Part shown: piece by piece, positions 12,510 through 12,654 of the stretch
Position numbering within the stretch: the stretch's first letter is position 1
How the letters are laid out: every line of letters begins with the position of its first letter
Assembly (NCBI RefSeq): GCF_003334815.1
Contig: NZ_QOWO01000044.1
Source: Escherichia coli
Lineage (GTDB): Bacteria > Pseudomonadota > Gammaproteobacteria > Enterobacterales > Enterobacteriaceae
DNA: 29,333 nt
Reading direction: 5' to 3' (one strand)
The notes under the pieces: model-generated
What the model saw: the letters and a program-made list of their open reading frames with translations, nothing else
Database searches by the model: none
What the model was told of the DNA's origin: nothing
Position numbers and translations under genes: made by a program

Positions 12510-12654
12510 ATTAGCTTATTTTTTTGTTATCATGCTAACCACCCGGCGAGGTGTGACACACCTCGCACTTGAAATCAGCAGCGATTGGTTTATCGTGATG
12601 CGCATCACTTCCCGGCAGTCCTGCCGTAGAAGCAACAAATTTCTGAGACTTGTA

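Follow-up and report, generated by a model that had tools for sequence, protein, structure and literature searches.

What is the perfect palindrome that precedes aroH, a textbook target of TrpR? In the stretch of DNA analyzed here (the window; 29,333 nt, arranged as in E. coli K-12 with ppsA on the minus strand, ppsR, aroH, hemP, and selO), the sequence GCGAGGTGTG-A-CACACCTCGC forms a perfect inverted repeat at 12546–12566 on the plus strand, with 10/10 arm positions pairing across a single central base. It lies between ppsR (11665–12498, plus strand; stop codon TAG at 12496–12498) and aroH (12655–13701, plus strand), 3′ of a TrpR-operator-like repeat (GTACTAGAGAACTAGTGC, 12492–12509) that overlaps the ppsR stop codon. 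We take this repeat to be the aroH TrpR operator of the established literature; GTACTA..CTAGTAC-like repeats are found at the equivalent place in other Enterobacteriaceae. The initial annotation, which recognized both the perfect repeat and its placement between the operator and the aroH ATG, had put the palindrome at 12547–12567, and the actual position is one base further left. Its last base is 89 nt and its center 99 nt from the ATG at 12655, so that the "about 90 bp" given there is a fair estimate. We also found no description of the palindrome in the searchable literature, in line with the lack of a described function noted earlier, though older papers may mention a dyad symmetry in the leader. 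Searches for an aroH leader element, for a 3′ end in the aroH 5′ UTR, and for aroH in RNA-binding-protein data likewise returned nothing.

We compared the palindrome with other inverted repeats in the window. Counting perfect repeats whose arms span 10 bp or more and whose loop does not exceed 8, we expected 0.34 per dinucleotide shuffle of the window and observed six distinct ones. Apart from the palindrome, four carry a T-rich tail, or a run of T within the stem, on one strand; the fifth (41–64; TAATGATTTTGATAAAAATCATTA) is AT-rich and lies inside a multi-copy segment at the start of the window. The aroH palindrome is the sole GC-rich repeat among the six that has no T-rich tail on either strand. 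No second copy was detected in the window with up to 3 mismatches allowed, and across E. coli genomes the palindrome occurs once (median of one place). A repeated element of the REP/BIME or MITE type was rejected, as the palindrome is single-copy and has no REP consensus. The segment at 1–76, which contains the AT-rich repeat, matches thousands of chromosomal and plasmid places and resembles what we take to be an IS10/Tn10 outer end inserted in ydiF. It is not itself ydiF, homology to which starts at 77, and the junction at 76/77 is absent from all E. coli genomes in the collection.

Whether the palindrome is part of an aroH leader depends on where transcription begins. A single aroH start has been mapped in E. 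coli, at position 1786408 of NC_000913.2, with 414 reads, a 51-nt 5′ UTR, and the upstream sequence TGACACACCTCGCACTTGAAATCAGCAGCGATTGGTTTATCGTGATGCGCA (Kim 2012; PMC3415461, Table S1). This start corresponds to 12604 in the window, 38 nt downstream of the palindrome. In Salmonella SL1344, dRNA-seq detected the orthologous primary start (P721), also with a UTR of 51 nt, and the promoter was tagged "Sigma 70 (-10 & -35)" (Ramachandran 2012; PMC3293720). Databases list two promoters, aroHp1 and aroHp2, both of which were targeted in a CRISPRa study. Back-calculation from the guide coordinates placed the aroHp2 start at 12603/4 and the aroHp1 start at ~12537/8, the latter being an indirect estimate from guide positions relative to the database start site. 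The E. coli map, Salmonella P721, and the aroHp2 guide positions therefore converge on a primary start (p2) at 12604 on the plus strand, and a promoter scan found its core on the same strand at 12569–12596, with TTGAAA (12569–12574) and TATCGT (12591–12596) separated by a 16-nt spacer. The aroHp1 start falls just downstream of the TrpR operator (12492–12509) and of a −10-like hexamer, TATCAT (12528–12533, plus strand).

The palindrome thus occupies +9 to +29 of the aroHp1 transcript and −58 to −38 relative to aroHp2. It is absent from the main aroH mRNA, the one that both genome-wide start maps detect, and is transcribed only from the TrpR-controlled aroHp1 or through read-through from ppsR, whose stop codon lies ~48 nt upstream. 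Since the main start is downstream of it, the palindrome belongs to the spacer between tandem promoters and not to "the leader". Mapping the start, a check that the initial annotation had proposed, therefore split its description: membership in the leader holds for the p1 transcript and fails for the main mRNA. The p1 start is listed neither in the E. coli map (Kim 2012) nor in the Salmonella map (Ramachandran 2012), which fits TrpR repression under the growth conditions used and implies that palindrome-carrying transcripts may be rare under standard conditions. Mendoza-Vargas 2009 has no aroH entry.

We examined these elements in 80 aroH loci from reference genomes, 75 metagenomic loci that carry the p2 core, and further genomes obtained through exact protein look-ups. 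The p2 promoter is conserved across Enterobacterales, from Escherichia to Yersinia, Serratia, Providencia, and Proteus. Consistent with Leyn et al. 2016, the TrpR operator and p1 are restricted to Enterobacteriaceae plus a few others. The spacer that separates the p1 −10 from the p2 −35 measures ~35 nt; it is nearly constant in length and otherwise poorly conserved in sequence. ppsR seems to lack a canonical terminator ahead of aroH. The stretch at 12489–12526, in which the TrpR operator repeat is followed by TTATTTTTTTG, is terminator-like in a simple scan, with a poor score (d = −59) that makes efficient termination of ppsR there unlikely.

As RNA, the palindrome is predicted to fold with about −14 to −16 kcal/mol into a stem of 9–10 bp, which bears out the earlier suggestion that it could form a stable hairpin. 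Eight of the 10 pairs had probabilities of at least 0.99 and the ninth 0.81, while the innermost pair opened to leave a 3-nt loop. The hairpin is predicted to fold autonomously within the p1 mRNA. An effect on translation, proposed along with the hairpin, found no support: the predicted accessibility of the ribosome-binding site was unchanged, at 0.72 in the p1 mRNA and 0.66 in the p2 mRNA. Long-range pairing with the ribosome-binding site was likewise rejected, as none was found and the z-score of the whole leader was −0.9.

We also considered whether the palindrome could be part of an attenuator. Like trp-type attenuators, it is a hairpin in the transcribed (p1) leader of a tryptophan-pathway gene, but it differs from them in having no Trp-codon leader peptide, mutually exclusive structures, U-tract, or Rfam match. 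A scan of 11300–14100 against Rfam with E up to 10 returned only one chance microRNA match elsewhere. In-frame start codons (GTG) occur only inside the stem and have no usable Shine-Dalgarno spacing. A leader peptide or attenuator was rejected, given that leader ORF, alternative fold, and U-tract are all missing. An ATG at 12532 opens a 389-aa frame that continues into aroH without a stop (12532–13701). This frame is specific to K-12-type strains, which have CGG CAG at a place where the frame is closed by CGG TAG in Salmonella and other E. coli lineages, and is best read as an accident of frame rather than an N-terminal extension of aroH.

Intrinsic terminators are the class that the palindrome resembles most obviously in shape: it shares with them a GC-rich stem of 9–10 bp, a short loop, and a location ~50 nt after the ppsR stop codon. 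It differs from them in that a U-tract is absent on both strands and no 3′ end has been mapped. The tail that follows the stem, ACTTGAAATCAGCAG, has 2 U in its first 8 nt (T score of 0.65). Using a d score of the d'Aubenton-Carafa type, we obtained −40 on the plus strand and −48 on the minus strand, and an intrinsic terminator was rejected on either strand on these tail scores. Of the other five perfect repeats, four scored between −8 and +27 on their better strand and three of these were above zero, with +4 for the aroH terminator and +7 and +27 for two other repeats. Within the portion of the Adams 2021 tables that we could consult, the 3′ ends include none for aroH and, for ppsR, an antisense entry only; low expression could hide a weak end.

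Conservation of the palindrome indicates that it is under selection. Between E. coli and Salmonella, 20 of its 21 positions are identical (95%), compared to 5 of the 12 positions just upstream (42%), and the one A-to-G change in Salmonella results in a U·G pair in the plus-strand RNA. A Citrobacter-like genus, with an aroH ~82% identical to that of E. coli, keeps the palindrome in versions that are perfect, have a second A-to-G wobble change, or have an altered loop. Among E. coli genomes, the 45 nt around the palindrome are 100% identical in 5,257 of 5,423, and identity in the remainder is 95% or more. Within the palindrome, conservation is strongest in the outer half-sites, GCGAGG/CCTCGC; one Escherichia sp. 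(L147) retains the outer 7 bp with a different 7-nt interior. Decayed versions were found in E. albertii and in another Escherichia species, and the spacer is arranged differently in Citrobacter youngae, C. freundii, and Klebsiella oxytoca. Absence from close relatives, which the initial annotation had named as a refutation, therefore gave a mixed picture, with decay of the repeat in E. albertii and retention in Salmonella and the Citrobacter-like genus. Since many p1-bearing genera have no strong hairpin (E. albertii, K. oxytoca, and C. youngae are examples), the element is dispensable.

We asked how the changes are distributed over the stem. Pair counting in 11 distinct members of the E. coli family of palindromes gave 90% paired cells and one compensatory change, and all nine one-sided stem changes give G·U on the plus strand. 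The covariation score of this family was matched by 96 of 500 shuffles, and conservation is mostly by identity. Folding of the natural variants as plus- and minus-strand RNA revealed no consistent strand preference. As covariation was not significant and neither strand was preferred, a role at the DNA level retains some probability.

The same slot between the two promoters is filled by three unrelated strong hairpins, one in E. coli and Salmonella, one in Enterobacter (CGGGGC-N5/6-GCCCCG), and one in Leclercia (CAGGGCAC-GTTT-GTGCCCTG), all with dG of −14 or below and p ≤ 0.03 relative to shuffles. In all three families the stem ends 2–3 nt before the p2 −35 hexamer. Across 28 distinct variants of the Enterobacter type, the 12 core stem bases are 99.4% pairwise identical and the 5′ flank is 49% identical; these variants have 18 different loop sequences, and the arms are 6 nt apart in 24 of the 28. 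Because stems are kept while loops and flanks vary, and because three unrelated stems occupy the one slot, selection seems to be for a nucleic-acid hairpin and not for a particular protein-recognition sequence. A simple explanation for the fixed location is that no other DNA is free here: the p1 core promoter overlaps the end of ppsR, leaving just ~30 nt of spacer between this promoter and the p2 −35. In Yersinia thracica, Erwinia, and Pantoea, ppsR is likewise followed by hairpins without a U-tract, and Serratia has a canonical terminator in its ppsR-aroH intergenic region.

Two other elements lie close to the p2 start. A palindromic box (GTGATGCGCATCAC, 12595–12608, centered at −2.5) spans the start and agrees with the CRP core consensus GTGAT-N4-ATCAC. 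The box is conserved over the same taxa as the p2 promoter, Providencia included; its outer bases are invariant and its central four vary from Escherichia to Yersinia, Serratia, and Proteus, and the Yersinia version is TGTGATCGCCATCACT. Its position over the start suggests that a bound protein may repress p2 by occlusion, and we found no report of CRP control of aroH. The second element is a stem-loop, CTTC-CCGGCAG-TC-CTGCCG-TA-GAAG, predicted by folding at 12608–12632 on the plus strand (+5 to +29 of the p2 mRNA) and conserved over the same range from Escherichia to Proteus. Over 25 taxa it shows some covariation: CG, UG, and UA all occur at one pair, and at another CG has been replaced by UA once. 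This stem-loop is a better candidate for a 5′-stabilizing hairpin than the palindrome.

The slot has further occupants. At several Enterobacteriaceae loci (L009, L010, L013, L005/L006, L030, and L091), an additional GTGATGNNCATCAC box takes up the slot, ~15 nt upstream of the p2 −35, and its center is ~48 bp from the box over the p2 start. The p2 −35 region has been lost in the Citrobacter youngae type (L042 and L092) and in C. freundii (L084). In C. youngae, a deletion of ~40 bp joins GTGTGATA directly to the TATTGT-box, and C. freundii has an unrelated long GC-rich hairpin. In these Citrobacter lineages, aroH probably relies on the TrpR-controlled p1 alone. In K. oxytoca (L085), L021, L013, and L089, the p2 −35 hexamer lies inside a short stem; these stems (CCCTGC...GCAGGG, CCTGCTG...CAGCAGG, and CCCGT...ACGGG) have apparent compensatory differences between taxa, and the one in Leclercia would compete with the 3′ arm of the slot hairpin.

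The model that we favor, to which we assign a probability of roughly 40%, is that the palindrome encodes a generic, sequence-independent RNA stem-loop that serves as a barrier or insulator for upstream-initiated transcripts. The stem-loop would exist solely in RNA that begins upstream, namely the TrpR-repressible aroHp1 mRNA and ppsR read-through RNA, and would protect RNA ends or insulate by blocking 3′-to-5′ exonucleases on processed ppsR or p1 RNA. Alternatively, it could form a stable structured module near the beginning of the long aroH mRNA. That it acts as RNA and not as DNA is inferred, as is its function as a barrier. By analogy, the palindrome might work, with similarly tentative standing, like the protective hairpins without a U-tract that lie between co-oriented genes, as a terminator-like stem that fails the U-tract test. 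Protective 3′ hairpins of this kind (REP/BIME and the stem-loops of trimmed ends) share with the palindrome its stability, its place between co-oriented genes, a conserved stem, and the irrelevance of the loop sequence; the palindrome differs in being downstream of the p1 promoter and hence also near a 5′ end. Work by Dar and Sorek in 2018 reportedly showed that stem-loops mark the trimmed 3′ ends of Rho-terminated transcripts. In our view, the palindrome does not terminate or attenuate transcription, act in translation, or serve as a specific operator for a protein.

The alternatives bear on the same observations. The hairpin could be a leaky, non-canonical terminator or insulator for which the A/U-rich p2 −35 region (ACUUGAAAU) provides a poor tail, a reading that we consider unlikely. 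Part of the polymerases arriving from ppsR and aroHp1 would be stopped or paused, such that aroHp2 would be shielded from occlusion and less TrpR-controlled transcription would reach aroH. The GC-rich stems of E. coli and Enterobacter do resemble terminator stems, the distance from the ppsR stop codon is where a terminator would be expected, and both the uniform end of the stems just before the p2 −35 and the canonical terminator of Serratia in the same intergenic region fit this idea. However, the U-poor tail and the strongly negative d scores on both strands count against it, as does the lack of a 3′ end at the hairpin in the consulted portion of the Adams 2021 tables. Termination would also have to be inefficient: in classical genetics aroH is regulated by TrpR, so p1 transcripts must largely read through the hairpin. 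We consider it rather unlikely that the palindrome is a DNA site for a dimeric activator or repressor, centered at −48 of aroHp2 (+19 of p1), that would give aroH a second input. It has the dyad symmetry and promoter-upstream position of palindromic operators such as the TrpR operator and CRP sites, and −58 to −38 is a region where activators and alpha-CTD bind. The conservation of the outer half-sites, the nearly fixed arm spacing in Enterobacter, and the second GTGATGNNCATCAC box in the slot of several genera, which resembles a protein site, also speak for it. Unlike most operators, however, the palindrome is perfect and GC-rich, and it matches no known motif. Although 12552–12567 is one mismatch from TGTGA-N6-TCACA, ~0.9 such matches are expected per window by calculation, and with 2 mismatches the window contains 9 compared to 13 expected; a CRP site was rejected as a match at chance level. 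The papers searched name no aroH regulator besides TrpR. The dimeric site suggested in the initial annotation is further weakened by the unrelated hairpins in sister genera, as the E. coli, CGGGGC, and CAGGGCAC types would need a different protein in each genus.

That the palindrome modulates aroH translation or mRNA stability in cis as a 5′ UTR hairpin is improbable. It is transcribed in the p1 mRNA and is predicted to be very stable, and 5′-proximal hairpins can in principle stabilize mRNA. In this it is like ompA-type 5′-stabilizing stem-loops, which it differs from in that 8–9 unpaired nt precede the stem and in its absence from the major p2 mRNA. According to the Belasco laboratory, 5′-terminal protection against RNase E reportedly needs a nearly flush 5′ hairpin, and because of the unpaired nucleotides at the p1 5′ end classical protection of this type fits poorly. 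The distance of the stem from the ATG, the unchanged accessibility of the ribosome-binding site, with which it does not pair, and the missing leader peptide, alternative structure, and U-tract also argue against a 5′ UTR function. Equally hard to credit is that the palindrome has no present function, as a quasi-palindrome perfected by template-switch mutation that persists by chance. Its absence or decay in E. albertii, other Escherichia, K. oxytoca, and C. youngae, where there is no obvious replacement, would be explained, as would the lack of significant covariation. However, chance persistence does not readily account for 95% identity across the E. coli-Salmonella split beside a spacer at 42%, for retention in three genera, for Enterobacter stems that are nearly invariant next to a diverged flank, or for the independent origin of strong hairpins in the same slot. 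A broader proposal, which we regard as quite unlikely, is that the slot between aroHp1 and aroHp2 is a regulatory device of its own, either an attenuator or insulator without a U-tract or an operator at −48 of p2.

For the biology of aroH, the main mapped mRNA of this TrpR target begins downstream, at a promoter that is deeply conserved and is not overlain by a TrpR operator. In aroH promoter constructs used for aromatic amino-acid production, cutting at the palindrome would separate p1 from p2. If the slot were a regulatory device, it would add a second, lineage-specific layer of control to a gene regarded as "TrpR-only", one reinvented with different sequences in Escherichia/Salmonella, Enterobacter, and Leclercia; as an attenuator or insulator, it would set how much TrpR-controlled and ppsR transcription enters aroH and would shield the constitutive p2. 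If the hairpin governs what becomes of the p1 and ppsR RNAs, the weakness of TrpR repression at aroH would in part be accounted for, and the three unrelated stems in one slot would be a small case of convergent structure.
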